From: an uncultured Candidatus Babeliaceae bacterium
GTDB taxonomy: Bacteria > Babelota > Babeliae > Babelales > Babelaceae
Reading direction: 5' to 3'
Length of the DNA stretch: 64,000 bases
Assembly: GCA_963704655.1 (NCBI GenBank)
Contig: OY969927.1
Coordinates: 1,216,001-1,280,000, forward strand
In this document: in pieces, positions 2,223 to 47,708 of the stretch
How positions within the stretch are numbered: the stretch's first letter is position 1
How the letters are laid out: the number at the start of each line of letters is the position of its first letter
Program-made: the position numbers and the translations under genes
The notes under the pieces: model-generated
The model's database searches: none
What the model saw: only the letters and a program-made list of their open reading frames with translations
Told to the model about the DNA's origin: nothing

Positions 2223-3107
2223 TTATTTTTTATTAATATTCTTAATTTCTTCCAATTTATTTTTGGCAAGTTCTTGTGTAACTGGATTTATATCCTTTTT
2301 AGGAATCTTTAGAATTTCTTTATAGAGTTTTTCTGGCGCAAGGTTGCCAGAATTTATGTTAAACTTCGATTGATATGTTTGGTTTTCTTCTAATAATTTT
2401 TTATCTATGAGTTCTTTAATTTCTTGGTGTAAGTTTGACCAGCTAAATTCAGTAAAAATAACTGCTAATGTTTTTAAATATTGGGCACGAGCATAATTTT
2501 TAAGATGATTTTCAAAAGGTCTGTGAGTCGGATACGCTTCTTGAATAAACTTTGAAATTATTTTCCATTTTTCATCCTCAGAAACGGCTGGTTCAATGAG
2601 TAATTTTACATTTTTGAGTATCTCTTTGTCGACCTTTTCCTGGGCATCTTTAATTTTTTTCAGTTCTATAAGGTTAGGATTTACACGTTGTAACACAAGG
2701 CCGATCTTTAAAGGTGTACTTTTTTCAAATGGCTCGGTTAAAGGCTTTTGTTTATTCAACATTTTCAGTGCGTTTTGAAATTTTTCTTTAAACGTCTGCC
2801 ATTTTTGGCGATCTGTACTTTGATAAGATTCTTGTACCGTTTCTTGCTGTTTGAGGTGCTCTTTAATATGCGATTTTAAAATTTCAAACTCAACATAGTC
2901 TTTTTGTTTTGCCGGATTTTTAACGGCTTCTACGAGTAAATCCTTTAATGCTTTTTCATCAAGGTTTTGTTTTATGATCTGTGGTTTTGTATTTAATGAT
3001 CGCATAAGCGCTTTATAATAGCCTTCATAGAGCGGTCTTGCTCGCATGCCATTAAGGTTAAAAGGCATAAGTAATAGACCAGATAAAATGAAATTTTTTA
3101 TGCGCAT
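2223..3107 (-). CDS. Hypothetical exported protein, lysine-rich and helical
   Basis: 294 aa ORF, signal peptide MRIKNFILSGLLLMPFNLNG-M, GGGGGCGGG upstream. Confidence 0.75.
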   Translation of the reverse strand: MRIKNFILSGLLLMPFNLNGMRARPLYEGYYKALMRSLNTKPQIIKQNLDEKALKDLLVEAVKNPAKQKDYVEFEILKSHIKEHLKQQETVQESYQSTDRQKWQTFKEKFQNALKMLNKQKPLTEPFEKSTPLKIGLVLQRVNPNLIELKKIKDAQEKVDKEILKNVKLLIEPAVSEDEKWKIISKFIQEAYPTHRPFENHLKNYARAQYLKTLAVIFTEFSWSNLHQEIKELIDKKLLEENQTYQSKFNINSGNLAPEKLYKEILKIPKKDINPVTQELAKNKLEEIKNINKK

Positions 3108-3182
3108 CCCCGCCCCCCTTTTACTGAGATATCTAAGTTACTTTAAAAATATCATAACTAATTTCAAATTGTCAATATTATT

Positions 3183-3755
3183 CTACTGTTGGGTACAGCC
3201 TTCTATAGAGCGGCCAAGATAGGCAAGATGTTCGTAAATAGAACCGATATCTTCCAATTGGTCTTCATGCAGTTTTTCAGCTAAATATGAAGAAAAGTCT
3301 TGTTCGGAATTTTTTGGTGAGGGTAAAGGCTCCCGGCTGGCTATTCTTTCAGCAAAGTGGTGCAATTCAATTAAGTGGCTCGCCGCTTCAAAAAATTTGA
3401 TTTTTATTTTTCTTGTGAGCTGCCCATGGTTTGCTGTGTTTGCGATCTGTTTTATTCTCTCGCTTGAGAAAAATATATTGAAATCGGTATCTTTAGGGTC
3501 AAAATGCTCAAGTAGTCTATTAAAGCCAAAGTAAATTTGATTGTTGATAATATGAGTAAGAATGGTTTTGCAATTATCGACTGGATTTAAAAATGGAACT
3601 ATAAATTCAGGGCTTTTAAGCGCATGCGTCGAGATGGTAAGTAATATTTTATGCCGTGTGTCTTTATCAAAAGTAGCAAATAACGCTTTTGAAGCATTCA
3701 TTGCGTCAAGGGAAAAAGTAATAAATATGAAAGCTGAGAAAATTTTTTTTATCAT
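3183..3755 (-). CDS. Exported protein, tandem family member 1, C-terminus CTQQ
   Basis: Likely start MIKKIFS at 3755; shares FD..DTDF..FFS..R..QIA...ASHLI.LH with the two neighbours. Confidence 0.8.
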   Translation of the reverse strand: MIKKIFSAFIFITFSLDAMNASKALFATFDKDTRHKILLTISTHALKSPEFIVPFLNPVDNCKTILTHIINNQIYFGFNRLLEHFDPKDTDFNIFFSSERIKQIANTANHGQLTRKIKIKFFEAASHLIELHHFAERIASREPLPSPKNSEQDFSSYLAEKLHEDQLEDIGSIYEHLAYLGRSIEGCTQQ

Positions 3756-3859
3756 AATAAAAAAATTGTTAAAAAATAACGTATTGCTTTTATTATTGTT
3801 TATTAAAAACAACAAAATCGCAATACGTTATTTTAAAAATTAAAGATGAGTCTTTTTTT

Positions 3860-4595
3860 TTATGATTGTCTGCAATCTTCAAGGGCTTGCTTTAAGTCGA
3901 TTACCTGAATGCCAGATTTAGGATAAGCACTTGGATGAGCATCTTCATAAAAGTTCATTTTTGTTTTCAGAGCATCTAACTTTTCGTTAAGATCTTTAAC
4001 GGTCTCAGAAGCTTTGTTAGTTGTATCAAGTATGCATGCTAGATTCATGGAGAAATCGTTTGGTTCGATATTTTTGCATGCTGCCAATTCCAATCTCTCG
4101 CGTACTGTTTTTGCTTCATGATGTAAAATCATCAAGTGGCCTGCAAGTTGAAAATACATTTTTTTATGTTCACCTAAATCACGAGAGCGACCATCTGCCG
4201 CCATCTTTTCAATGCGTTCATCAGTGAAGAATTTTGCAAAATTGGTATGGTTTTCATCTAAGCCTTCGGTGACTTTGATTAAAGCGGCTGCGCCTTTAAG
4301 TCTAGGCTGTTTTTCTTGTATTGCTTCTAAAAGAGATTTCCCAGTGTTTTTTTTAGTTATCTGGTTATCAAAAGCATACGTCAGGAACAGTGGTAATGAA
4401 CTTTTGTCTTTGATAACCGGAAATATTGCATCAAAGGTTTCACCTAAATTTTCTGCTGCTTCCGTTGCTAGCGCATATAAGATTTCTGCTTTTGTTCGTT
4501 GATTATCGATACTTGCGTATTCAAAAACATTAACTTCACTTGCTTGTGCAGTTGCGCAGAGTAACGTGAGTAAAAGATAGAATTTTTTTTATCAT
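3860..4595 (-). pseudogene. Exported protein, tandem family member 2, frameshifted in a 5' A8 tract (244 aa if one A is removed), C-terminus CRQS
   Basis: The 5' end is nearly identical to 4621..5262 but has A8 instead of A7 after ATGAT. Removing one A opens MIKKFYLLLTLLCATAQASEV... in frame with ORF 3860..4204. Confidence 0.8.
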
Positions 4596-4620
4596 AATAA
4601 AGTCTATAAAAGAAGTTGTT

Positions 4621-5262
4621 TTATTGTAGTGGGCAGCCAAGTTCATAAAATTGATTTTGTGAGAAGGGTATAAGTGCTGGGCCATTAATTCTCTTTTCTA
4701 ATGACTCACGCTTTTGTTTGAGCAAATCGCTTTCCTGTAACGGGTTATGCAATCTTTTTACTAAATATGAAGCGAGACTATCAACACTATGGGTTTCTTG
4801 TATACCTATGGCAATACCATCGGCAATTTCCAATGCGTGCCCATGTAACTGAATTAAATGACTGGCTTGTGAAATATACAATGCTTTTTTATCGAAAGGC
4901 CAATTTGAATTTGTGGCTTGTTGAGCTATTTGATCTAAACGAGCATCAGAAAAGAATGTTTTAAAGTCTGTGTCAGCTTTGTCAAAAGACGTAGCAACGT
5001 TTTCTATATTACCATGTATCTGGTGATCTAAAATTTTTTTAAGTGTTTTTTCGCATATATCCCTCGATTCCAGCTCCTGAGGGTTTTCTGTTAAAAAAGG
5101 CACTATAGCAGTTTCAGGGTTTTTTAATGGTAGTGTCGATAGCCCAAGTAATACATGTAATCTTGTTGTTTCATCAAGAGAAGCAAATTTTGTAAGACTA
5201 TTTTCATTGGCATGTGCAGATGCGCAGAGTAACGTGAGTAAAAGATAGAATTTTTTTATCAT
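4621..5262 (-). CDS. Exported protein, tandem family member 3, C-terminus CPLQ
   Basis: Signal peptide MIKKFYLLLTLLCASAHA; shared family motif. Confidence 0.85.
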   Translation of the reverse strand: MIKKFYLLLTLLCASAHANENSLTKFASLDETTRLHVLLGLSTLPLKNPETAIVPFLTENPQELESRDICEKTLKKILDHQIHGNIENVATSFDKADTDFKTFFSDARLDQIAQQATNSNWPFDKKALYISQASHLIQLHGHALEIADGIAIGIQETHSVDSLASYLVKRLHNPLQESDLLKQKRESLEKRINGPALIPFSQNQFYELGCPLQ

Positions 5263-5368
5263 ACGTAACCTTTAAAGATACGGTTTATGTGATTTTGTTT
5301 ATAACTCACATAAGTATACCTATACTGTCCCCAAATGAATAGATTCAGCGTGATAAACGTACAATTAA

Positions 5369-5442
5369 CCCTTTCCATACATTCACCTGTGGTGAACACT
5401 TCCGACTTCGCCAAGGCTTCGACGGACAGGCAGGGTGCACGG
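5369..5442. repeat. REP-like palindromic repeat carrying a nested 30-bp second palindromic element (5401-5430)
   Basis: With 5401-5430 removed, the sequence matches the reverse complement of 24842-24886. Confidence 0.75.
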
Positions 5443-5463
5443 GATTTGAGTATGATAAATGTT

Positions 5464-6828
5464 TTACTTATAATTTAAGTACAGGTCGTTAACAAATATC
5501 TCTTGCGGGTCATATTGTCTTTTAAGTTTAATAAATTCATCAAACTGTGGGTATGCCGCATGAACTTGTTCTTTGGTTGCAAAGCATTGGTATGGCAAGT
5601 AAAAGGTGCCATGGCACTCGAGGGCTGCGTTAATAAGCTCGCGTGTCCAAAGCTGTGCAACTTCAAATGCTGCTTTGCTGTTTTCTAGCGATATAAAAAG
5701 AACCAGTGCGCTGCATGTTTCAGGAGCATAGCTTAAAAAGCTTGTGGTATCTTTTTTTACTAAACGAAGCGTGCCATTTAAAAGGTTCACATTATTCTTT
5801 TGAAGAATAACTTTTGCTTTATCAACGAATTTCTTAAAATCTTTTAAGGGAATAAAATATTCTTGCAAGATATCTATATGTGTCGACCTGGTTTCTTGTA
5901 AATGATCGGTAGCAAAATGCATGAAGTTATTTCTTGATTTAGTTACTTCTAATTCTATCAGATGCTTTTCTACAAATAAGCGAACATTTTTTACAAAGGG
6001 AACATCTCTCAAAAAGCCAAATAACTTTTGTGAGATATACGTTTTTATTGATGAAAGTGGCTTTAATTTCTCTGTAGTTATCTTTTTAGTGTCATGATAC
6101 GTAAGCGTAAGCATGGTATCAAAAAAATTCTCTGAGCCGATCGTAAAACGCGCAGAAAAAAGTGCAATATTATTGTTGGCAAGAGTTTTCTGCGTTAATG
6201 AGTCAAGATGTCTTTTTGTGTTAACAACCTTAACTCTTTTTTTTAACATCGTGTTATCAATAAGTTGCAAAGTAACTTCTGTGATAATGCCAAAAAGACC
6301 ATACCCACCAATAACGGCATGGTAAAGTTCTGCATTTTTAGTAGGGCTTAAGGTCACTTTTTCGCCTTGGGCATTAATAATAACCATTGAAATAACGGTG
6401 CTTCCCACTGGAGCATATCTAAAATCTTGGCCGTGGGCATTTACGCCAATAGAGCCACCAACAGAGAAATCACAATAAGACTGCATAGCAGCAACCGCGA
6501 GCCCGAACGGGTTAATATATTCTTGAATCTCTTTCCAGCTTATTCCAGCCTGAACGGTGATAGTTTTTGAACTTATATCTAAGTTTAAAATTTTGTTAAG
6601 GCCCTGTAGATCGATAACTGTTGTATCGCACAGGGTATTTTTAACACTAACCCCTTTGCCAGCGCCTTTTATGGTAACATTGGTTTTGTTTGTAGCGGCA
6701 GTTTTTACGGCTTGCTCGATTGCATCAACATTTTTGGGTGCAATTAATGTTACACTATGCGCATGTGTGGTATAGGTCGATAAAATTGTCATTAAAGACA
6801 AGAAAGTTTTTTTCAGAAATAGTTTCAT
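5464..6828 (-). CDS. FAD-binding oxidoreductase (VAO/PCMH fold; aldonolactone oxidase/DprE1-like)
   Basis: ITVQAGISW, FSVGGSIGVNAHG, VIGGYGLFGIITEVTL, ILQEYFIP, GTFYLPY, KRQYDP; N-terminal signal-like segment. Confidence 0.9.
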   Translation of the reverse strand: MKLFLKKTFLSLMTILSTYTTHAHSVTLIAPKNVDAIEQAVKTAATNKTNVTIKGAGKGVSVKNTLCDTTVIDLQGLNKILNLDISSKTITVQAGISWKEIQEYINPFGLAVAAMQSYCDFSVGGSIGVNAHGQDFRYAPVGSTVISMVIINAQGEKVTLSPTKNAELYHAVIGGYGLFGIITEVTLQLIDNTMLKKRVKVVNTKRHLDSLTQKTLANNNIALFSARFTIGSENFFDTMLTLTYHDTKKITTEKLKPLSSIKTYISQKLFGFLRDVPFVKNVRLFVEKHLIELEVTKSRNNFMHFATDHLQETRSTHIDILQEYFIPLKDFKKFVDKAKVILQKNNVNLLNGTLRLVKKDTTSFLSYAPETCSALVLFISLENSKAAFEVAQLWTRELINAALECHGTFYLPYQCFATKEQVHAAYPQFDEFIKLKRQYDPQEIFVNDLYLNYK

Positions 6829-18901: not shown

Positions 18902-20086
18902 TTATTTTCTGACAATATTAAATCTTTTAACCAGGTGCCATTTTAAAATCGGGTCAAATTTGCTAAGGGTTCCATGGAAATCCCAAGTTTTAAACTGTGG
19001 GTTATATTTTTTGAAAAGATCAAAATCAATAGGCATAGGATTTTTATGTTTTTTATAATATGTCCTACCTTCTTTTTCTCGCCGTGCGTGATACCGTTCT
19101 TGTAGGGCATATTCAGCGCCAAATAAAAAATAGATCAGTGATCTTTGGTATTCTTTTAGATTTTCAAAACTCTTTTTTAAATAGTCTGGATTAACGGTAA
19201 TTTTTAGCTGACCAGATGCTCCGACGAAATTGTCCGGAACAATAAGATCATGGGCTTGTGAAACAATTTGTCTTACCAGCCGGTTTTGTGGTGACACATT
19301 AGTGAAGCCATCTACACGTTCTGAATTAATGTCATAAATTCTGCCAGCACAAGAATAGTTGATGCTAACTAATCGATTTCCGTCATGAGAAAATTTTAGG
19401 TACTTAAGGGGGATGTTGATTCCATATGTACGAAAAATAGTATCGGTAGCTAAATCTCTAACTTGAATTTGCCGGTGTAACTCTATTGCAAGCCATTTAT
19501 TGGCATGTGAGATGGCAATTTTAGAGACATCTGAAGGGCAATTTGCTACTAAACGCTCTTTTTTTGTTTCAAGGTTATACCCTCTTATTGACGCAAAGTT
19601 ATCGGCTGCGACTTTATATCTATGAACGTATAACAGCTCTTTTCCTGTTGCATCAAATACAAAGTCGTTTGAGCTAGAGACATTAATTCTTGTAGGTCGT
19701 TTGTTTGGCTGCAGAAGATCATAAAGTTTTATTTTGACATTTGGTTTTGCTAGTGCTAACAGCTGTTTGCTCGGGTTATAAGCATAGATGGTATCATATT
19801 CTCTATACTTATTTTTAAAAAAAGAACAATATGGCTTATAAGTTTCTAGCTCTGGGACCATCCATGATTCATTATAATCTAAAAACTCTCTCTTTTCATT
19901 ATAATGGTAAATTGTTTTTAGCACTTTCCATCGTAATTCAGCAGGTATTTTATACAAATCATAGCTCATATTTTTAGTAAAACCATGTGCAGTAGTATCG
20001 GCATGTTTACTTAGAATTTTAACTTGTTCCTGCGCAAAAAGATCAATGTGGCAAAGGAGTAAAAAAATGGTTATTTTAATATTCAT
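18902..20086 (-). CDS. Exported WD40-like protein with F-box-like motif (paralog A)
   Basis: LYKIPAELRWKVLKTI; propeller blades (FDATGKEL, ISHANKWLA, FSHDGNRL). Confidence 0.8.
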   Translation of the reverse strand: MNIKITIFLLLCHIDLFAQEQVKILSKHADTTAHGFTKNMSYDLYKIPAELRWKVLKTIYHYNEKREFLDYNESWMVPELETYKPYCSFFKNKYREYDTIYAYNPSKQLLALAKPNVKIKLYDLLQPNKRPTRINVSSSNDFVFDATGKELLYVHRYKVAADNFASIRGYNLETKKERLVANCPSDVSKIAISHANKWLAIELHRQIQVRDLATDTIFRTYGINIPLKYLKFSHDGNRLVSINYSCAGRIYDINSERVDGFTNVSPQNRLVRQIVSQAHDLIVPDNFVGASGQLKITVNPDYLKKSFENLKEYQRSLIYFLFGAEYALQERYHARREKEGRTYYKKHKNPMPIDFDLFKKYNPQFKTWDFHGTLSKFDPILKWHLVKRFNIVRK

Positions 20087-20107: not shown

Positions 20108-21268
20108 CTATTTTCTGACAATATTAAATCTTTTAACCAGGTGCCATTTTAAAATTGGGTCAAATTTGCTAAGGGTTCCATGAAAATCCCATGTTTTAAA
20201 CTGTGGGTTATATTTTTTGAAAAGATCAAAATCAATAGGCATAGGTGTTTGATATTTTCCCGTATATGATTCACCCTCTTTTTCTTGTCGCTCTTTATGT
20301 CGTTCTTGTAATGATCGCTCAGCGCCAAATAGAAAAGCGATCAGTGATTTTTGGTATTCTTTTAGATTTTCAAAACTCTTTTTTAAATAGTCTGGGTTAA
20401 TAGTAATATCTATTTTTCCCGTTCTGCCTTTTAAACTCTCTGGCACCATAAGATCATGCGCTGGTGAAAAATGCTCTTTTAATTTAGGGTGCTCTGGGGT
20501 GATATCTGCAAAGCTGGCTGAAGTAAATCCTGTTTCTACATTATATAATCTGCACACTTTTTGAGTGTCAATTTTAACTAAACGGTCTCCGCTAGCATTA
20601 AATTTTAGATACGTAATGGGTCGATTAATTTCAAAGGACCTAAAAATATCTTTGGTATCTAAATTAATAACATCAATTCGGTTTTCAAGCGCGACTGCAA
20701 GCTGTTTATTGTCATTTGAAATGGCAATTTTATGGATATTTTCAATTTGAGCTGTTAATACCCGTTCTTTTTTTGTTTCAAGGTTATAGCTTCTTACTAT
20801 TGAAAAAAGCCCCATATCTTTATAGCAAAACAGCAATTCTTCTCCTGATGCATCAAATATAAAATCATTTGGGATAGTCATTTTTAATTTTTTAGGACGT
20901 TTGTTTGTTTGCAAAAGATCTATCAGATATATTGCATTTTTTGGGTTGGCTACTGCTAATAACTGTTTGACATGGTTATAAGCATACAGGATATTATTAT
21001 CTTCATTTTTAATTGTTAGGTATGGTTTATTTGTTAGTTGCCCTGGCGTAGATGATTCATGAGCACTTATTATTTTAAGCACCTCACATTGTAATTCACC
21101 AGGCATGTTAAAGAAGTTAGAATGCACATCGTCGCCATTAAAACCATGTATTGTTATTTGAGTATCATCTTTGGTAGCAACTTTTTGCATTTCAATATCC
21201 TGTGCATAAAGACAGGCGTGAGAAAATAGTATAATAATTGCTGTTTTTTTGTTCATTGATATATCCAA
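20108..21268 (-). CDS. Exported WD40-like protein with F-box-like motif (paralog B)
   Basis: FFNMPGELQCEVLKII; same blades; C-terminal ~45 aa identical to paralog A. Confidence 0.8.
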   Translation of the reverse strand: MDISMNKKTAIIILFSHACLYAQDIEMQKVATKDDTQITIHGFNGDDVHSNFFNMPGELQCEVLKIISAHESSTPGQLTNKPYLTIKNEDNNILYAYNHVKQLLAVANPKNAIYLIDLLQTNKRPKKLKMTIPNDFIFDASGEELLFCYKDMGLFSIVRSYNLETKKERVLTAQIENIHKIAISNDNKQLAVALENRIDVINLDTKDIFRSFEINRPITYLKFNASGDRLVKIDTQKVCRLYNVETGFTSASFADITPEHPKLKEHFSPAHDLMVPESLKGRTGKIDITINPDYLKKSFENLKEYQKSLIAFLFGAERSLQERHKERQEKEGESYTGKYQTPMPIDFDLFKKYNPQFKTWDFHGTLSKFDPILKWHLVKRFNIVRK

Positions 21269-27619: not shown

Positions 27620-28417
27620 TTATCTTTTTGAACGTTTTGTTTTGGCATGCAATGGCACTGTTTCAATGCTTTTGCGCAGCTGATCTGAAAGCGTGGGCTT
27701 TTTGCGCGCAATTTTTTTAACTGGTGCAGTAGCTTTTGCTGTTTTCTTTTTACTTTTAGCTTTTAAAAGAGCTTTAATTTCTTGGGCAAACGTATCTTTA
27801 AATTTTGTTATATCAAATTTCTTTACTGATAACGTGTTGATAAGTTGCTCTGCTAGTTTTAATTCCTGCGCATTATATTTTGGCACGGGTGAAGCGGGGA
27901 CATCAAGAGCCTTTATTTCATAAGAATAGTGTAACGTGGTGAGCAGTAAATAATTTTCATGCGGGCGTATTGCGCAGGTGTATTCTTTGTCGTGCATAAT
28001 AAATCTGCCTATGGCAATTTTATCTAATTTTTCTAATGCCTTTAAAAATAATGCATAGCCATTATTACCGCTTCTTGCTGGCGCAATATAATAATGGTGG
28101 TTCATGTACAAGTCATTTAGCTGATCAGCTTCAATAAATTCTACAATGTTAAGTGTCTCTGTTGTTTCTGGACGCAATTTTTTGAGCATATCTTGACTCA
28201 GAATTAAAAAACCTTTTGATGTTTTAAACCCTTTGACGGTGTCATTCCAGACAACTTCTTTTTGGCACTTTGGGCACCAGCGATGATATTCTAATGGCGT
28301 TTGGCACGTTGCATGCAACATAGTAAACCCTAATGCATGTTCTTGTATTGCCGGGTAAAGTTTAATGGGAATCGAAACTAACCCGAAAGACAGTGAACCT
28401 TGCCAAATTATTTTCAT
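27620..28417 (-). CDS. ku: Non-homologous end-joining protein Ku
   Basis: IWQGSLSFGLVSIPIKLY, CPKC, VKGF, LLLTTLHY, ELKLAEQLI, FKDTF, basic tail. Confidence 0.95.
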   Translation of the reverse strand: MKIIWQGSLSFGLVSIPIKLYPAIQEHALGFTMLHATCQTPLEYHRWCPKCQKEVVWNDTVKGFKTSKGFLILSQDMLKKLRPETTETLNIVEFIEADQLNDLYMNHHYYIAPARSGNNGYALFLKALEKLDKIAIGRFIMHDKEYTCAIRPHENYLLLTTLHYSYEIKALDVPASPVPKYNAQELKLAEQLINTLSVKKFDITKFKDTFAQEIKALLKAKSKKKTAKATAPVKKIARKKPTLSDQLRKSIETVPLHAKTKRSKR

Positions 28418-28490: not shown

Positions 28491-28910
28491 ATGTCGAAAC
28501 CAATCTTTGTTATTCAAGAACATCACGCGAGTCATTTACATTACGATTTTCGTCTCGAAATGGACGGTGCATTACGTTCATGGGCGGTGCCAAAAACGCC
28601 CACCGCAGAGCCTGATATTAAAAGACTTGCCGTGCTCACAACGGACCATCCGCTTGAATATGCAACTTTCCAAGGTGTTATTGAAGAAGGTTACGGTGCC
28701 GGCACGGTCAAGATTTGGGACCACGGCACGTATGACAATATTACGCATCATGAGGGCAAACTTATTTCGATGGACCAAGCCTTTGAAGATGGGCGCATTA
28801 AAATTAATTTGCACGGCAAAAAATTAAAAGGCGCATTTGCCCTTATTCGATTTCACAATAACGACAAGAATTGGCTCTTGATGAAAATCGATGATAAATA
28901 TGCAGAGTAA
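28491..28910 (+). CDS. Stand-alone LigD 3'-phosphoesterase (PE) module
   Basis: FVIQEHHASHLHYDFRLE..G.LRSWAVPK, RLAV.T.DHPLEY..F.G.I..GYGAG.V.IWD.G. Confidence 0.93.
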   Translation: MSKPIFVIQEHHASHLHYDFRLEMDGALRSWAVPKTPTAEPDIKRLAVLTTDHPLEYATFQGVIEEGYGAGTVKIWDHGTYDNITHHEGKLISMDQAFEDGRIKINLHGKKLKGAFALIRFHNNDKNWLLMKIDDKYAE

Positions 28911-34061: not shown

Positions 34062-35570
34062 TTGCTTCATACGACAGTGCGTATTTATAAAAGCATACTT
34101 TTTGCTACGGTTTTTTTTGTAATACATAATTTACAAACAAAGCCGTTTGATGCGCATCTTGCAGGGTCGTGGTACCCTGCCCAACGTACCGATTTAAAAA
34201 AACTTTTACAATCTTTTGAAAATACTACAAAAGATACTTTTGATATGCGCACGGATAGTTCAAAGATTCGTGCGCTTATTGTCCCGCATGCTGGATATTA
34301 TTATTCTGGCCGTATAGCAGCAGCAGCGTATAGATTACTCAAAGATAGCGTTATTGATCGTGTTATTATTTTGGCACCGTCACATTACAAAGCTTTTAAC
34401 GGTGTTGCATTACCCGAATTTACGCAGTATAAAATACCTGCAGGTATTATGCGTTTAGATTCCCAAGCGCTTAATAAACTAGCTGTAACTAGATTATTTA
34501 CTGTCGATAATGGCGCATTCTATCCTGAGCATGCCATAGAGATACAACTTCCTTTAATTAATTATTTTTTACCCAAGGCTAAAATTGTTCCTTTAGTGGT
34601 CGGTGACCTTTCAGCTGCTGACTGTGTTTCTGTTGCTACGAGTTTAAAGGCGCTCATAACACCTAACACATTAGTAATTATAAGTTCAGATCTTACTCAT
34701 CATGGTGCTGCTTTTGGATATGCGCCATTTACTGACGCAATAACTGCTCGCGTTGCGCAGCTTGATTCACAGATTCTTTATGCTATTCAGCACCAAGATT
34801 TAAAAAAATTTAAAAATATTATCCATGATACTGGCGCAACCGTTTGTGGGCACATGCCATTGGAAGTTCTTTTAAAGATGGAAGAACTGAATGCATTTGG
34901 TTCTTGTGCAACACGTTTGGTCGCCTATGGCAATTCGGCAGAAACATCTGCTGGTGTTGAAAGATTAGTTTCGTATGCTGGTTTGATAGTCACGCAAGAA
35001 ACGAATAATCAAGAATATTCTATGCAGGAAAAAAATTCACTGTTGCGCTATGCGCGCAACACCATTGCAGAAACTTTTAAGAAAACTATTAATCCAGAAT
35101 TGTTAAAACCGGTTATGACCCCAATGCTTGAAAAGCCTTCTGGTGTATTTGTAACTCTTTATTCTAAAAATGGCAATGGAAAACAGCTTCGTGGTTGCAT
35201 CGGCACGGTGTTAGCGCGTGAGCCATTATATCAAGCAGTTTCTGCAATGGCATATCAAGCAGCGTTTAATGATAGTCGGTTTGCGCCATTACAACCTGAA
35301 GAACTTAGAAATATTTCGATAAGTATATCGATACTTACGCAGCCACATTCTGTAGCAAGTTATCATGATATTATTTTGAATAAACATGGCATTATACTTA
35401 CTGTTGGAAATTCTTCTGCATTGTTTCTGCCTAAAGTTCCTCAAGAATTCGGTTTCACACTTCAGCAGACATTAGCTGAGCTCAGTAAAAAAGCAGGGCT
35501 TTCTGCAGACGCTTGGAAATCGCCCGATGCGAAATTTCAGGTATTTGAATCTATAGATTTTAGTGAATAA
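34062..35570 (+). CDS. AmmeMemoRadiSam protein B (MEMO1-like) fused to protein A (AMMECR1)
   Basis: AGSWYP, VPHAGY.YSG, EHAIEIQLP, SSDLTH, TVCG; C-terminal GVFVTL...LRGCIG...D.RF.P...FLP.V. Confidence 0.93.
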   Translation: MLHTTVRIYKSILFATVFFVIHNLQTKPFDAHLAGSWYPAQRTDLKKLLQSFENTTKDTFDMRTDSSKIRALIVPHAGYYYSGRIAAAAYRLLKDSVIDRVIILAPSHYKAFNGVALPEFTQYKIPAGIMRLDSQALNKLAVTRLFTVDNGAFYPEHAIEIQLPLINYFLPKAKIVPLVVGDLSAADCVSVATSLKALITPNTLVIISSDLTHHGAAFGYAPFTDAITARVAQLDSQILYAIQHQDLKKFKNIIHDTGATVCGHMPLEVLLKMEELNAFGSCATRLVAYGNSAETSAGVERLVSYAGLIVTQETNNQEYSMQEKNSLLRYARNTIAETFKKTINPELLKPVMTPMLEKPSGVFVTLYSKNGNGKQLRGCIGTVLAREPLYQAVSAMAYQAAFNDSRFAPLQPEELRNISISISILTQPHSVASYHDIILNKHGIILTVGNSSALFLPKVPQEFGFTLQQTLAELSKKAGLSADAWKSPDAKFQVFESIDFSE

Positions 35571-36608: not shown

Positions 36609-38798
36609 ATGAAAAAAATTATGAGTATTATGCTTGCTTGTGCAAGTAGTTGTGTGAATTTGAAAGCTTATATGGTTAAAAAATTAGAGGCTGCACCGCA
36701 GCAATTAGAGCTGTTTAAAGAGATTGCAACACAGCGTAATGAGCAGTTGCCAGAATTATGGAACACTCTTACACCACAAGAGCGTGTTTTAGCATACTTT
36801 CTGTATAGAGCAAGTAATGCTGGTAACCGTATTATAGCCGATCAAACGCATCGACATGCCGTTGAAATTATCGAAATTTTTGAAAAAATTGTTCAGAATA
36901 AAGCGGTTATTAAGCAAAAATGCGCTCAAACTTTTGATGTTGATGCTTTCTTGAAAGAAGCCGAAACTTTCTTAGTTTATCTCTATGCGCATCATGGCCA
37001 ATACTTTTTAAAAGAGTTTGAAAATCATAAACGCACGCCAGAAAAGATGCAGCTAAAAATGCTTGTTTTGGGTAATATTGTTGTTGCTCTTAATGCAATC
37101 GGTTTACATGAACCGCACCATTTAGTGAATCGCTTGCGTGAATCGATTTTTGATGCATCTTATGAGCCTACTGTTACGGTGGAAGGCAGTATCGAAGAAA
37201 GTGCGGGGAACTATTATAGCCCCGATTTTACTGAGCAAGATTTTGAATTACTTGATCCAGAAAGTAAAGTGGCATTAAATGTGTATTCCTATATCGCATC
37301 CGTTAATGGTGTGCCTGTGCCTATGGTTGAACGGTATAAAATTGGCGGAAAATATTCTGCAGAATTAGAAGTGGCCCATTATTGGCTCACAAAAGCGCAT
37401 GATCACGCGGTGAAGTATCCTGAGATTTTTGATAAACATATTCCTGCTAGTTTAAAGCATATGCTCAAATACCTTGAAACGGGTGATGAGCAGGAGTTTA
37501 GAAAGTTTTCTATTGAATGGCTCAAGACTAACAGCAGAATCGATTTTAATTTTGGTTTTGTCGAAGTCTATCAGGACCCGAAACAGTTTCGTGGAGAATT
37601 TGAAGCCGATGTTACGGTAAAAGTTGTTGATATGAAAAAACTTAATGCTCTCTTGCCAGCACTTGAAAAAGCATTGCCATTTCCTGATGAATTTAAAAGA
37701 CAGAACTTAGAAGATACTGCCGCTATACCAAATGCATCAGTGAATGCTAAAATTTTTGCCTCTGGCGGTGCTGGTCCGGTGAAGGTTGTTGCTGCGTATT
37801 GTTTGCCAAATTATACTGATATTCGTGCAGAACATGGCTCAAAACAGATCATCTATCAGTTTGGCAAAGGGCTTGGTGAATTGATGAACCCGACTTTAGC
37901 ATTGAGACTTTTTAATATAAAACAACACGCAGATTGGCTTGAAAAACATGACCCGCAAGGCAAACTGAATCATGACATTTGGGATGTGCATGTTGTGTTG
38001 CATGAAACACTTGGCCATGGCAGCGGCAGGGACGCTGAGCATGTTTTTGTCCCAGGTGACCCATTAACTATTAGCGGAAAATCATATGCTATCGGTGACG
38101 TTATTCAAGTAACCAGTGATAACAATACTGAATTTATAGGTGGATACTCGTCTGCATTAGAAGAGTTGCGCGCCGAGATTATCGCGCTTTATACGAGTAT
38201 TTATAATTATGACGAACTTGATGCAAGTGGTTTATATAAAGACTGGACCAAAAGAATCGGTAAAGAAAAACTCATCGAATGGTTTATCGTGCACATGGCG
38301 CAATCTGGTTTGAATAGATTACTCGTGCAAGCAGATGATGCAACAGAGATTGTTCAGGCGCATGCGCGTGCAGACACGACTATTATGAACTATTTACTTG
38401 ATCATGGCGGTTTAGAACTTGTAGAAGAGCAGTATCCTGTTAACGGCGTTTCACACACGGTTGTTGGTATTCGTTTAACAGATTTGAATTTAGCAATGCA
38501 GGCAGTTACTGACCTTGCATGTTTGGTGCAGCGTTGTAAATCTACTGCGGATGGCCAGGCTGTTGAAGAACTTATGAAGACATATGGCACCTGTGTTCGC
38601 CACCCAGAATATATTAAAATCCTTAAGGCAAATCGTCAGGCAGTGCAGGGTGATCTTAAAGAGATCGCAGAGATATTCCCGCGCTTGATACCAGAAACAG
38701 ATGCTTCTGGAGAAATTACTGACATTTCAGCCGAATGGCCAGCAAGTTTTCTTGAACAGCAGCTTGAACAGAGCAAACTTGCATTATCTAAAGAATAA
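36609..38798 (+). CDS. Dipeptidyl peptidase III (peptidase M49)
   Basis: GFVEVYQDP...GEFE, hexapeptide HETLGH(GSG), LEELRAE, QAHARA. Confidence 0.92.
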   Translation: MKKIMSIMLACASSCVNLKAYMVKKLEAAPQQLELFKEIATQRNEQLPELWNTLTPQERVLAYFLYRASNAGNRIIADQTHRHAVEIIEIFEKIVQNKAVIKQKCAQTFDVDAFLKEAETFLVYLYAHHGQYFLKEFENHKRTPEKMQLKMLVLGNIVVALNAIGLHEPHHLVNRLRESIFDASYEPTVTVEGSIEESAGNYYSPDFTEQDFELLDPESKVALNVYSYIASVNGVPVPMVERYKIGGKYSAELEVAHYWLTKAHDHAVKYPEIFDKHIPASLKHMLKYLETGDEQEFRKFSIEWLKTNSRIDFNFGFVEVYQDPKQFRGEFEADVTVKVVDMKKLNALLPALEKALPFPDEFKRQNLEDTAAIPNASVNAKIFASGGAGPVKVVAAYCLPNYTDIRAEHGSKQIIYQFGKGLGELMNPTLALRLFNIKQHADWLEKHDPQGKLNHDIWDVHVVLHETLGHGSGRDAEHVFVPGDPLTISGKSYAIGDVIQVTSDNNTEFIGGYSSALEELRAEIIALYTSIYNYDELDASGLYKDWTKRIGKEKLIEWFIVHMAQSGLNRLLVQADDATEIVQAHARADTTIMNYLLDHGGLELVEEQYPVNGVSHTVVGIRLTDLNLAMQAVTDLACLVQRCKSTADGQAVEELMKTYGTCVRHPEYIKILKANRQAVQGDLKEIAEIFPRLIPETDASGEITDISAEWPASFLEQQLEQSKLALSKE

Positions 38799-45782: not shown

Positions 45783-47708
45783 TTAGAGTTCTAATAAAAA
45801 GCGAGTACGTTTTGGTTCGTCATTAAACCACCAATTTGCTGCACCGGGTAGCAATTTAAATGTCCGTATAAAGCTTTGGCCAGCATCTTGAAGTTCCATT
45901 TGGTAATTTATATAATGTGCATTTTCTTGTGCCAAGAATGTCGGTCTTTCAAGATGGGTAGCAAGAACAGAGATACACTTATCATTTTGTGCAAGCTTGT
46001 TACACAGCTGAATAACAAATTGTTCCGCAACGCGTTCTATAGTGCCTCGACATGGTTCATCGATAATGAAAAAGTAAGCATCTGAGTTTTTAAGATTATC
46101 TATGGTGTTCATAATTGTATCAAGACGTTTCTTTTCTGCCATGAATGTCGACATGCCGTGTTCAAGATCTGCTTGTGGTGATAAATAAGTGCGTAAGCCT
46201 GTAAATACACGCATTGTTGCTTTTTCAGCAGGTGCGATACCCCAACCTTGAGCAAGAATAATTCCCCAGCTTATAGCGGCCATAGAAGTTGATTTACCGC
46301 CACCATTAGGACCGGTGATAATCATATTTCTTGGTTTACCCATACCCAAATGAACCGAGTTGGTAACAGTTTTTTTGCTGGTAAGTCCAGGGTGCCAGAA
46401 ATGTATACATTCAAGTGAAGGTGCGTCCTGAGTAAATTCTGGTAAGCAGAATGGTGCGTGTGTGCCATTGTGTTCATGGTAAAGTTTTACAATTGATAAG
46501 ATCGCATCGCATTCGCCTAATGCTTTCAAAAGAGGCACTAATTCATCTTTTGTTTGCATTAATAATTTGTGTGCTAAAAGAGCCGACCCTGTTAATATAC
46601 TTGTTGCAGAGCTATTTTTTAGTGATGCAAGAAGTTCAAAGAGGCTTTTTAACTCTGGTGAAACATCTTGGTCATGGATATATTTTTCAATAGTTTTAAA
46701 TGATGACAATTCTGCACATGCGGGGTTTTTTTGGCTGAAATCATAAAGTTGAACGCATCCGTCGTACCATTGCGCTATTTCATGAATAGCTGCGCTGAGT
46801 TGAGCTGTTGTTTTATAGGTATTCTTAATTTTTTTAATATGAGTATCAATATCTTTTGCTGCAAAATAATCATACGTAGCTATATATCCAATAACGCCAA
46901 GAGTTGCAATCAAAGGGGCAGAAGAAATTAAACTTTCCTGGGTGATAAGGCTGCTCTCAATAAGCGTTTTCCAATCGCCACCAGAAAGCTTAGGTGAATC
47001 TAAAAAAAACGAGAAATCACTTAACTTATTTTCACTAAAATATGATTGAAATGGGTTGTGAAGACGAATAGGATAGTAAAAACCATCTTTTATTGCATCG
47101 ATGTAATTTCCGGGTATTTTCTTATTAAGAGATATTATAAATTCTTTAATTATACTGCCAAGGCAATTTTTGGCTAAATATCCTGTTACAATTAAGGCAG
47201 AGTTGACATTACCCGCAAGATTTAAAGCTAATTTACTTGAGTTTAAGTAGTTACTTATTTTTGGAAAAATACCAAAGAAATCATAATAGAGCTCTTGTGT
47301 ATTTTGATGAAGTTGGTTTGCAGGTTGCCAATAGGCTAAGAGTGCAGGTTTATTAATTTTTTGTATGATACCCTGATATTCATCAAAAACTATTGAATCA
47401 GAGATAAGAATTTTAAGGGCGTTTTGGCGTACATTAAGGGCATCTAGAGTCGTTAAAGGGTGGGTTAGCATCTTATGTAAACCCCAAAGGCCAAATGGTG
47501 TTTCCGATCGATTTAAGGTGGCTATTATGGCATCATAATTGAGCTCTTTATAGCCTTCTTGATTGATAAATGTCGATACTGTGCTTGGATTGGCAGCGGC
47601 TATGGTTGAGAATGCTTGACTGGAAGCGTGAAGCGCATTGATTGGCTTGCCGGTAAGAAGGCCGGCTAAAATAAGCGAAAACAGGGTAATTTTTTTAAAT
47701 AACGTCAT
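45783..47708 (-). CDS. MutS-related ATPase (domains III/V only) with signal peptide
   Basis: T.FG...L..ML..P, LGECDA..SI, ITGPNGGGKST, STFMAE, IIDEPCRGT, LATH; no mismatch-binding domain. Confidence 0.88.
   Translation of the reverse strand: MTLFKKITLFSLILAGLLTGKPINALHASSQAFSTIAAANPSTVSTFINQEGYKELNYDAIIATLNRSETPFGLWGLHKMLTHPLTTLDALNVRQNALKILISDSIVFDEYQGIIQKINKPALLAYWQPANQLHQNTQELYYDFFGIFPKISNYLNSSKLALNLAGNVNSALIVTGYLAKNCLGSIIKEFIISLNKKIPGNYIDAIKDGFYYPIRLHNPFQSYFSENKLSDFSFFLDSPKLSGGDWKTLIESSLITQESLISSAPLIATLGVIGYIATYDYFAAKDIDTHIKKIKNTYKTTAQLSAAIHEIAQWYDGCVQLYDFSQKNPACAELSSFKTIEKYIHDQDVSPELKSLFELLASLKNSSATSILTGSALLAHKLLMQTKDELVPLLKALGECDAILSIVKLYHEHNGTHAPFCLPEFTQDAPSLECIHFWHPGLTSKKTVTNSVHLGMGKPRNMIITGPNGGGKSTSMAAISWGIILAQGWGIAPAEKATMRVFTGLRTYLSPQADLEHGMSTFMAEKKRLDTIMNTIDNLKNSDAYFFIIDEPCRGTIERVAEQFVIQLCNKLAQNDKCISVLATHLERPTFLAQENAHYINYQMELQDAGQSFIRTFKLLPGAANWWFNDEPKRTRFLLEL

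Follow-up and report, generated by a model that had tools for sequence, protein, structure and literature searches.

CaaX-like C-termini on a tandem family of signal-peptide proteins from Babeliaceae: candidates for host farnesylation

In Legionella pneumophila, which parasitizes protists from within their cells, the protein AnkB carries both ankyrin repeats and a eukaryotic CaaX end, and SifA is a host-prenylated effector of Salmonella. For the Legionella Pel/AnkB proteins, host prenylation is established and the cysteine of the box is needed for anchoring at host membranes, as described in the excerpted texts of PMC13081727 and PMC2916131; the C-terminal CaaX-type motif of the Salmonella protein GtgE is likewise used by host prenyltransferases (excerpt of PMC13423502). 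Here, we describe a comparable C-terminus in a window of 64,000 nucleotides from an uncultured Candidatus Babeliaceae bacterium (GCA_963704655.1, contig OY969927.1, forward-strand positions 1,216,001 to 1,280,000; all positions given below without a contig or locus name are those of the window). On its minus strand, positions 3183–5262 encode three tandem paralogs, A, B, and C, each of which ends in a cysteine followed by three residues. The Dependentiae, to which this bacterium belongs, are widespread parasites of protists and almost uncultured. We propose that the A–C family comprises candidate host-farnesylated secreted effectors of these obligate intracellular bacteria. Because of the positional conservation of the cysteine and of parallels in two other protein families, this is the best explanation of the sequences, and we regard it as probable, with considerable room for doubt.

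The family is a parallel of the Legionella Pel/AnkB and Salmonella effectors and not a relative: it works alike but differs in export route, phylum, and protein family. Legionella delivers its effectors by injection through the Dot/Icm type IV system, whereas the family described here has classical signal peptides and its genome encodes type II secretion genes. The Dot/Icm effectors of Legionella are not known to have Sec signal peptides. Moreover, Pel/AnkB proteins belong to another phylum and show neither a sequence nor a fold relationship to the family, in which no F-box was detected and prenylation is predicted from sequence. SifA and GtgE share with it a C-terminal CaaX-type motif that is placed on a secreted bacterial protein and used by host prenyltransferases, but they are unrelated proteins of animal pathogens and depend on type III secretion.

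For the cultured Dependentiae C. destructans, the excerpted text of PMC6561590 gives signal peptides on 44% of the coding sequences, proposes Sec for effector export, and locates the cell in the cytoplasm of its host. Nowhere does that paper use the word “prenyl”. In the literature outside subscription-only sources, nothing was found that links CaaX or prenylation to Dependentiae or TM6.

A cysteine at position −4 in three tandem paralogs

Open reading frame (ORF) calls and translations resolve the locus into three minus-strand genes. Paralog A (4621–5262) encodes 213 residues comprising a signal peptide, an all-alpha core, and a flexible tail ending in GCPLQ. Paralog B has an open frame of 242 codons (3860–4588) ending in DCRQS, and paralog C (3183–3755) encodes 190 residues from a MIKKIF start, with a signal peptide, the same core, and a short tail ending in GCTQQ. 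Sequence identity of paralog A is 29% with B and 37% with C. Twelve columns of the core are invariant in all three (D94, T98, F100, F103, F104, R108, A113, A133, H135, L136, L139, and H140), and these are the core residues that the first-pass annotation had quoted when it recognized three tandem paralogs. It had also placed a cysteine at −4 in each of them, as is indeed the case: CPLQ of A lies at 4624–4635, CRQS of B at 3863–3874, and CTQQ of C at 3186–3197.

Classical Sec-type signal peptides are predicted at the start of A (MIKKFYLLLTLLCASAHA, 5209–5262, minus strand, cut before NEN) and of C (MIKKIFSAFIFITFSLDA, cut before MNA). That of A has a KK n-region, a hydrophobic core, and an A-H-A cleavage motif. 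The frame of B contains signal-peptide residues as well (KKFYLLLTLLCATAQA), but without a start codon. An n-, h-, and c-region with a small-x-small cleavage site is thus present in A, C, and the frame of B, and it is kept in 12 of 12 aligned family members. These calls were made by eye and with a crude script, which flags 659 of the 1207 ORFs of the genome and is probably too permissive.

AlphaFold2, run on a 12-sequence alignment (A4), yields a confident all-alpha domain for paralog A (mean pLDDT 83.9, pTM 0.79). In this model, tail residues 201–213 have a pLDDT below 50 and do not pack against the core. The first-pass annotation had suggested an F-box-like N-terminal segment and hence an AnkB-like layout; this was not borne out, as AlphaFold places the segment in the helical core. 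No F-box occurs among the Pfam matches of the three paralogs (E ≤ 1) or of 12 members (E ≤ 10), a search in which the HMMER filters drop most very weak matches.

Beyond the window, the position of the cysteine is kept in part. Of 11 homologs with complete-looking ends, seven have a cysteine at −4, in the boxes CPLQ, CRQS, CTQQ, CSIM, CRVQ, CNMQ, and a second CPLQ. The latter belongs to the distant homolog P0012, which is 25% identical to A, while CSIM belongs to a fourth paralog in the same genome (G000:C1:897814-898668, ending in ACSIM). Family members are about 20–36% identical to paralog A and their tails are not alignable; in the seven members with Cys(−4), the distance from the invariant leucine to the C-terminus is 10, 25, 28, 34, 35, 36, or 47 residues. 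In all seven, X of the box is Q, S, or M, the farnesyltransferase-type residues of CaaX prenyltransferases. The first-pass statement that the tails vary and yet each end in C-x-x-[Q/S] therefore applies to A, B, and C, and across the family X is also M. As the −4 spacing is kept in these seven while tail length and the three following residues vary, the cysteine behaves like that of a CaaX box. The tail thus appears to have been rebuilt repeatedly with the three-residue spacing after the cysteine kept, behavior that would be expected of a CaaX box, unlike a disulfide partner.

As a stand-in for a prenylation predictor, we used the complete CXXX screen of yeast farnesyltransferase and its Ydj1_HM score, for which the authors set a cut-off of 3 (PMC10320760, File S4). 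Each of the six different boxes in the family exceeds it (3.76–5.74), with 4.82 for CPLQ of A, 4.84 for CRQS of B, and 4.99 for CTQQ of C. Ydj1 (CASQ) and LKB1 (CKQQ), whose “shunted” or non-canonical type of box is scored as farnesylated in the excerpted part of the screen, resemble CTQQ and CRQS in their polar a2 residue and in X being Q or S; they differ in being host proteins made in the cytosol, whereas the box described here sits on an exported bacterial protein. According to the same excerpt, Ydj1-type boxes are farnesylated without later cleavage and methylation. By analogy, CTQQ and CRQS, with Q at a2, may be farnesylated without these two steps.

The same position in other families and genera

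The genome of the window (G000) is a single contig of 1,298,077 bases with 38% G+C and is 96% complete. ORFs of at least 100 amino acids were called as the longest ORF with greedy overlap removal, which gives n = 1207 in this genome. Cysteine occupies −4 in 31 of them, compared to 15.4 on average (sd 3.9, max 23) across the rest of the range −1 to −30 (Poisson P 3e-4); the genome-wide count proposed in the first-pass annotation thus yields an excess. The more specific pattern C-x-[VILMF]-[LMIFQSAC] stands at the very end of 10 ORFs and averages 2.19 (max 6) over 59 shifted registers, although it was written after inspection of the list and is partly post hoc. The background of Cys(−4) ends in the genome includes housekeeping proteins common to a genome of another genus (G008, see below), namely those ending in CVGK, CTVW, and CPIF and a CHGK/CLLK pair.

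Signal-peptide proteins also form a second tandem family (L102, G000:C1:119000-126000), which carries the ends CVIL, CVLL, and CQIL, while its fourth paralog ends in SIFE. Just after the signal peptides, its members have PPxY-like motifs (NPPPY, PPPAY, APPDY); PPxY is a eukaryotic WW-domain ligand. The CVIL copy consists of two ORFs split by a frameshift away from a homopolymer, and a homolog in genome G002 has PPAY as well as a signal peptide and likewise ends in CVIL.

The window itself contains a distant paralog of this second family (E 1.6e-8 to G000:C1:121586-122344), a signal-peptide protein of 307 residues at 11222–12145 (plus strand) that ends in HTCGASCGCAVL, with CAVL as its last four residues. 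It is unrelated to A–C and matches no Pfam family. H-Ras-type proteins have palmitoylation sites beside the CaaX box, and the extra cysteines just upstream of the geranylgeranyl-type box in the 307-residue protein recall such sites.

An independent parallel is found in G008, a whole genome from another genus of the same family (1.118 Mb, 27% G+C). Here, cysteine is at −4 in 28 of 875 ORFs, compared to a mean of 9.1 (max 15) elsewhere (P 4e-7), and C-x-[VILMF]-[LMIFQSAC] ends 14 ORFs versus 1.53 expected. Of the 28 ORFs, 17 fall into one BLAST cluster; these and one singleton were scanned, and 18 of 18 are ankyrin-repeat proteins. Across the 126 ankyrin-like ORFs of G008, the cysteine counts from −1 to −15 are 2, 1, 3, 18, 2, 1, 3, 0, 1, 1, 0, 0, 0, 1, and 0. 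By contrast, the 749 other ORFs show no peak, and their 10 with Cys(−4) are within the range of other positions. The boxes (CLLS, CILS, CLVS, CALS, CTIS, CISM, CISS, CLIF, and similar) are preceded by unrelated upstream sequence. As in AnkB, the carriers of the CaaX-type box in G008 are ankyrin-repeat proteins. Nearly all of the 126 ankyrin-like ORFs (loci L103-L158) have signal-peptide-like N-termini.

In two genera, signal-peptide families that are unrelated to each other thus follow one positional rule, and their boxes are of eukaryotic type.

Host farnesylation weighed against other roles of the cysteine

In G000, which is 96% complete, no match was found to the prenyltransferase families Prenyltrans (PF00432) and PPTA (PF01239), so that any prenylation must come from the host. 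Nor does this genome match the Rce1-like/CPBP proteases (PF02517) or the disulfide-forming enzymes DsbA (PF01323), Thioredoxin_4 (PF13462), DsbB (PF02600), and VKOR (PF07884). A type II secretion cluster is present at G000:C1:1066-1077 kb, comprising a T2SSC/GspC-like gene, a pair of secretins that contain a GspD N0 domain, and a PilM_2-like gene. This combination, with prenyltransferase, Dsb, and CPBP matches lacking and a type II cluster present, favors the host as modifier, once the protein has been exported by Sec and a type II-type route, rather than a periplasmic disulfide or a bacterial sorting tag.

We propose the following sequence of events. The N-terminal Sec signal peptide seen in the sequence would carry the protein across the inner membrane, and the type II secretion apparatus or vesicles might release it from the bacterial cell. 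Once in the host cytoplasm, host protein farnesyltransferase would alkylate the cysteine at −4; X being Q, S, or M predicts farnesyl over geranylgeranyl. Via the variable flexible tail, the lipid would then tether the all-alpha domain of ~170 residues to a host membrane, where it may act on a target. The first-pass annotation had inferred anchoring at the vacuole; C. destructans, as noted above, is described in the host cytoplasm.

Several observations speak against host farnesylation of the family. Four of the 11 homologs do not have a cysteine at −4: P0004 ends in CEQGQM (cysteine at −6) and P0008 in CPYLERITQQ (at −10), while P0011 and P0014 have no cysteine in the tail at all. The first-pass reading of the ends as CaaX-type boxes for host farnesylation accordingly gains from the comparative evidence, that is, the kept spacing and X as Q, S, or M, and loses from these four proteins. 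At the codon that would have to be a stop for the tail to end in a four-residue box, P0004 has CAG and P0008 has GAA, each one base away from a stop codon, which is only weakly suggestive of lost stops. Two of the three boxes in the window, CTQQ and CRQS, are non-canonical with Q at a2, and four of the seven Cys(−4) members contain exactly two mature cysteines, the number required for a disulfide. The yeast score is lenient, with 11 of the 23 remaining −4 boxes in G000 also passing the cut-off, so that the test is weak and of low specificity despite the difference from the six of six family boxes (one-sided Fisher P about 0.03).

The genomic counts also contain points of this kind. Two families (4 + 4 ORFs) make up most of the −4 excess in G000, and the remaining 23 ORFs are barely above the background of 15.4. 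With the crude signal-peptide call, Cys(−4) occurs in 19 of 659 predicted exported ORFs and in 12 of 548 others (Fisher P 0.47); the enrichment among exported proteins that the first-pass annotation would have expected is not seen with this call. Two further candidate carriers were rejected. The end of a CILF protein is not conserved, its orthologs ending in TSLLF and YLKF, and the cysteine in the CFFI end of a NAGPA-family enzyme belongs to a domain and lies at varying distances from the C-terminus. For a protein ending in CSVI, the ortholog is cut off by a contig edge before its end. G054, a genome from another family, has no −4 peak in the first 400 kb of its 1.23 Mb (7 of 335 ORFs versus 4.9). 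Hence, the feature is not universal in the order; by the same token, the ORF-calling method is not its source. Finally, the step from periplasm to host cytosol is hypothetical for all Dependentiae, and prenylation itself is a prediction here.

Among the rival explanations, the one that survives best assigns the C-terminal cysteine a structural role, in which a disulfide with an internal cysteine or the binding of a metal or cofactor would pin the tail to the core and the likeness to CaaX would be incidental. We consider this unlikely. It would suit proteins that all have Sec-type signal peptides, and an internal cysteine (DICEK, DNCKT, QECTT, NRCPE, ENCET) is conserved in the short subfamily, but the position of the partner is not conserved in the long one. 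The exactly two mature cysteines of P0003, P0001, P0006, and P0012 fit a single bridge, whereas the odd numbers of three in P0002 and in the G001 homolog and of five in L006:1498-2127 do not. Similarly, a tail cysteine that is kept at −6 or −10 in two homologs agrees with a structural role, yet a disulfide needs no fixed three-residue end, and −4 is occupied in seven of the nine members with a tail cysteine. The low pLDDT of the tail in the model further argues against a tail pinned to the core, as does the lack of any DsbA, DsbB, VKOR, or Thioredoxin_4 match in a genome that is 96% complete. In addition, predicted exported proteins of G000 show no bias toward even cysteine counts (247 even versus 329 odd), a criterion that reportedly stems from work on disulfide capacity in bacteria.

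A second rival, prompted by analogy to MYXO-CTERM and related cysteine-containing C-terminal tags that work with type II secretion, takes Cys-x-x-x for a signal of sorting or lipidation by the bacterium, in which one of its own enzymes would modify the cysteine and keep the protein on the bacterial surface; we judge this quite improbable. Cysteine-based C-terminal tags do exist in bacteria: in the excerpted text of PMC11980579, MYXO-CTERM proteins resemble the family in their Sec signal peptide, their type II secretion, and a C-terminal cysteine that is invariant and believed to carry a lipid. The signal peptide, the type II secretion genes, and the near-invariant C-terminal cysteine of the family are compatible with such a tag. 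However, the known tags of that excerpt consist of a cysteine motif, a membrane-spanning helix, and a tail rich in arginine, whereas only three residues follow the cysteine here. MYXO-CTERM tags need the helix, the arginine-rich tail, and a CPBP protease, none of which was found; for the protease, this refers to the Rce1-like/CPBP search of G000. Moreover, the peak in G008 is restricted to proteins with ankyrin repeats, a module that faces eukaryotes, and the boxes of this peak (CLLS, CILS, CLVS, CALS, and CISM) follow the eukaryotic aliphatic rule.

The weakest alternative, an inherited cysteine without function that has not yet drifted from −4 and a genome-wide peak that is a by-product of few expanded families, is very improbable, for although two families contribute 8 of the 31 ORFs in G000 and thus most of the excess, and 4 of 11 homologs have lost the position, the spacing is kept at about 20–36% identity to A with unalignable tails up to 37 residues apart in length, the residues at the three positions behind the cysteine vary, and the same positional rule recurs in three unrelated protein families of two genera.

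Host farnesylation of the A–C family would be one case of a broader model, to which we give even chances: that Sec- and type II-exported proteins of Babeliaceae arrive in the host cytosol without an injection machine and receive a lipid there from host prenyltransferases, with different genera tagging different effector families. In the genome described here, the tagged families would be the orphan helical one and the PPxY-bearing one; in the sister genus, the tag would be on roughly one ankyrin-repeat protein in seven. A CaaX tag is usable only in the eukaryotic cytosol, so its conservation is indirect evidence that Sec-exported proteins reach the host cytoplasm. If this model is true, the tag marks which signal-peptide proteins act in the host cytoplasm and provides a first handle on effector delivery in the phylum, as a simple sequence rule for picking host-acting effectors. 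Likewise, host-lipidation mimicry, known from Legionella and Salmonella effectors of injection systems, would extend to another phylum and another export route.

Paralog B, family distribution, and genomic setting

The first-pass annotation had counted three exported paralogs. This is supported for A and C by their predicted signal peptides, while the assembled sequence of B does not amount to an intact exported gene because its start is out of frame. The start region of B (4583–4595, minus strand) reads ATG (4595-4593), ATA, and a run of eight A (4590-4583), compared to seven A after the ATG in paralog A. As the DNA at the 5′ ends of A and B is otherwise near-identical, the difference amounts to a one-base insertion, and the additional A places the ATG of B out of frame with the signal peptide. 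The signal-peptide frame is entered only behind TGA and TAA stops and has no start codon before the methionine at 4204; consequently, the longest ATG-started ORF of B (3860-4204, 114 residues) is without a signal peptide. The extra A could be a homopolymer assembly error, the mark of a pseudogene, or a slippage site, and paralog B may be inactive in this strain. Public contigs of four runs are identical to the locus where they overlap it, and the stretch 4332-4620, which includes the A8 run, lies outside their coverage. Within 3639-5400, parts of the locus are covered at low depth and without differences by short public contigs from two studies, labelled as marine and soil metagenomes. A promoter and terminator scan of 3000-5500 returned 11 promoter-like sites, compared to 9.3 expected, and no terminators.

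Genome searches recovered copies of the family in three of five other genomes of the genus, and no copy in 31 genomes of other genera of Babeliaceae or in 24 genomes of other families. In two genomes of the genus, a family gene adjoins lon, as it does in the window; a profile scan of 80 lon-matching loci recovered only these two known neighbors of lon. A word-based search of 5.8 billion proteins returned the query alone, while a profile search of 1.84 billion representatives yielded 14 proteins at E ≤ 0.001, including one spurious repeat protein and three fragments. The family has no Pfam match at the thresholds given above for the paralogs and the 12 members. Judged by these sequence searches, it appears to be a small orphan family found only in one genus-level clade.

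Structure searches with the model gave a similar outcome. Foldseek found no match at E ≤ 0.001 in the PDB; its best matches were to the Bcl-2 family, a likeness that we rejected in view of E values of about 0.7–2 and TM scores of 0.17–0.27. With VIA-align against 48,161 chains, the best Z was 5.0, within the noise for helical models, and the ESM Atlas contained no usable fold match for the family.

Some neighbors of family genes carry features of their own. The CSIM paralog (locus L011) is flanked by an ankyrin-repeat ORF (2354-2944, minus strand) and a small ORF (2930-3340, plus strand), the latter with a eukaryote-type C2H2 zinc finger at E 3.8e-5, just under the Pfam cut-off. In genome G004, a protein that combines a signal peptide and a DnaJ J-domain (E 4.5e-14) is encoded between the paralogs and lon (L006 2278-3396, plus strand). 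By eye, its C-terminal half resembles a 294-residue protein at the same place in the window (2223-3107, minus strand), which itself has no J-domain match.

Most ORFs of the window have signal-peptide-like N-termini, among them WD40, Sel1, and TPR proteins, a PLA2_B lipase, an M49 peptidase, and a ribonucleotide reductase. Such hydrophobic N-termini are also seen on families that are normally cytoplasmic, namely the ribonucleotide reductase large subunit (61095-62942, minus strand), a MutS-like protein (45783-47708, minus strand), a Memo/AMMECR1 fusion (34062-35570, plus strand), and the M49 dipeptidyl peptidase (36609-38798, plus strand). Either these proteins are exported or such segments mean something else in this organism. 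Further, Ku (27620-28417, minus strand) and a protein with a LigD 3′-phosphoesterase domain (28491-28910, plus strand) are encoded side by side, parts of a non-homologous end-joining system in a reduced genome of 1.3 Mb. Two adjacent beta-propeller (WD40-like) paralogs with signal peptides (18902-20086 and 20108-21268, both on the minus strand) share the same last eight residues, KRFNIVRK.

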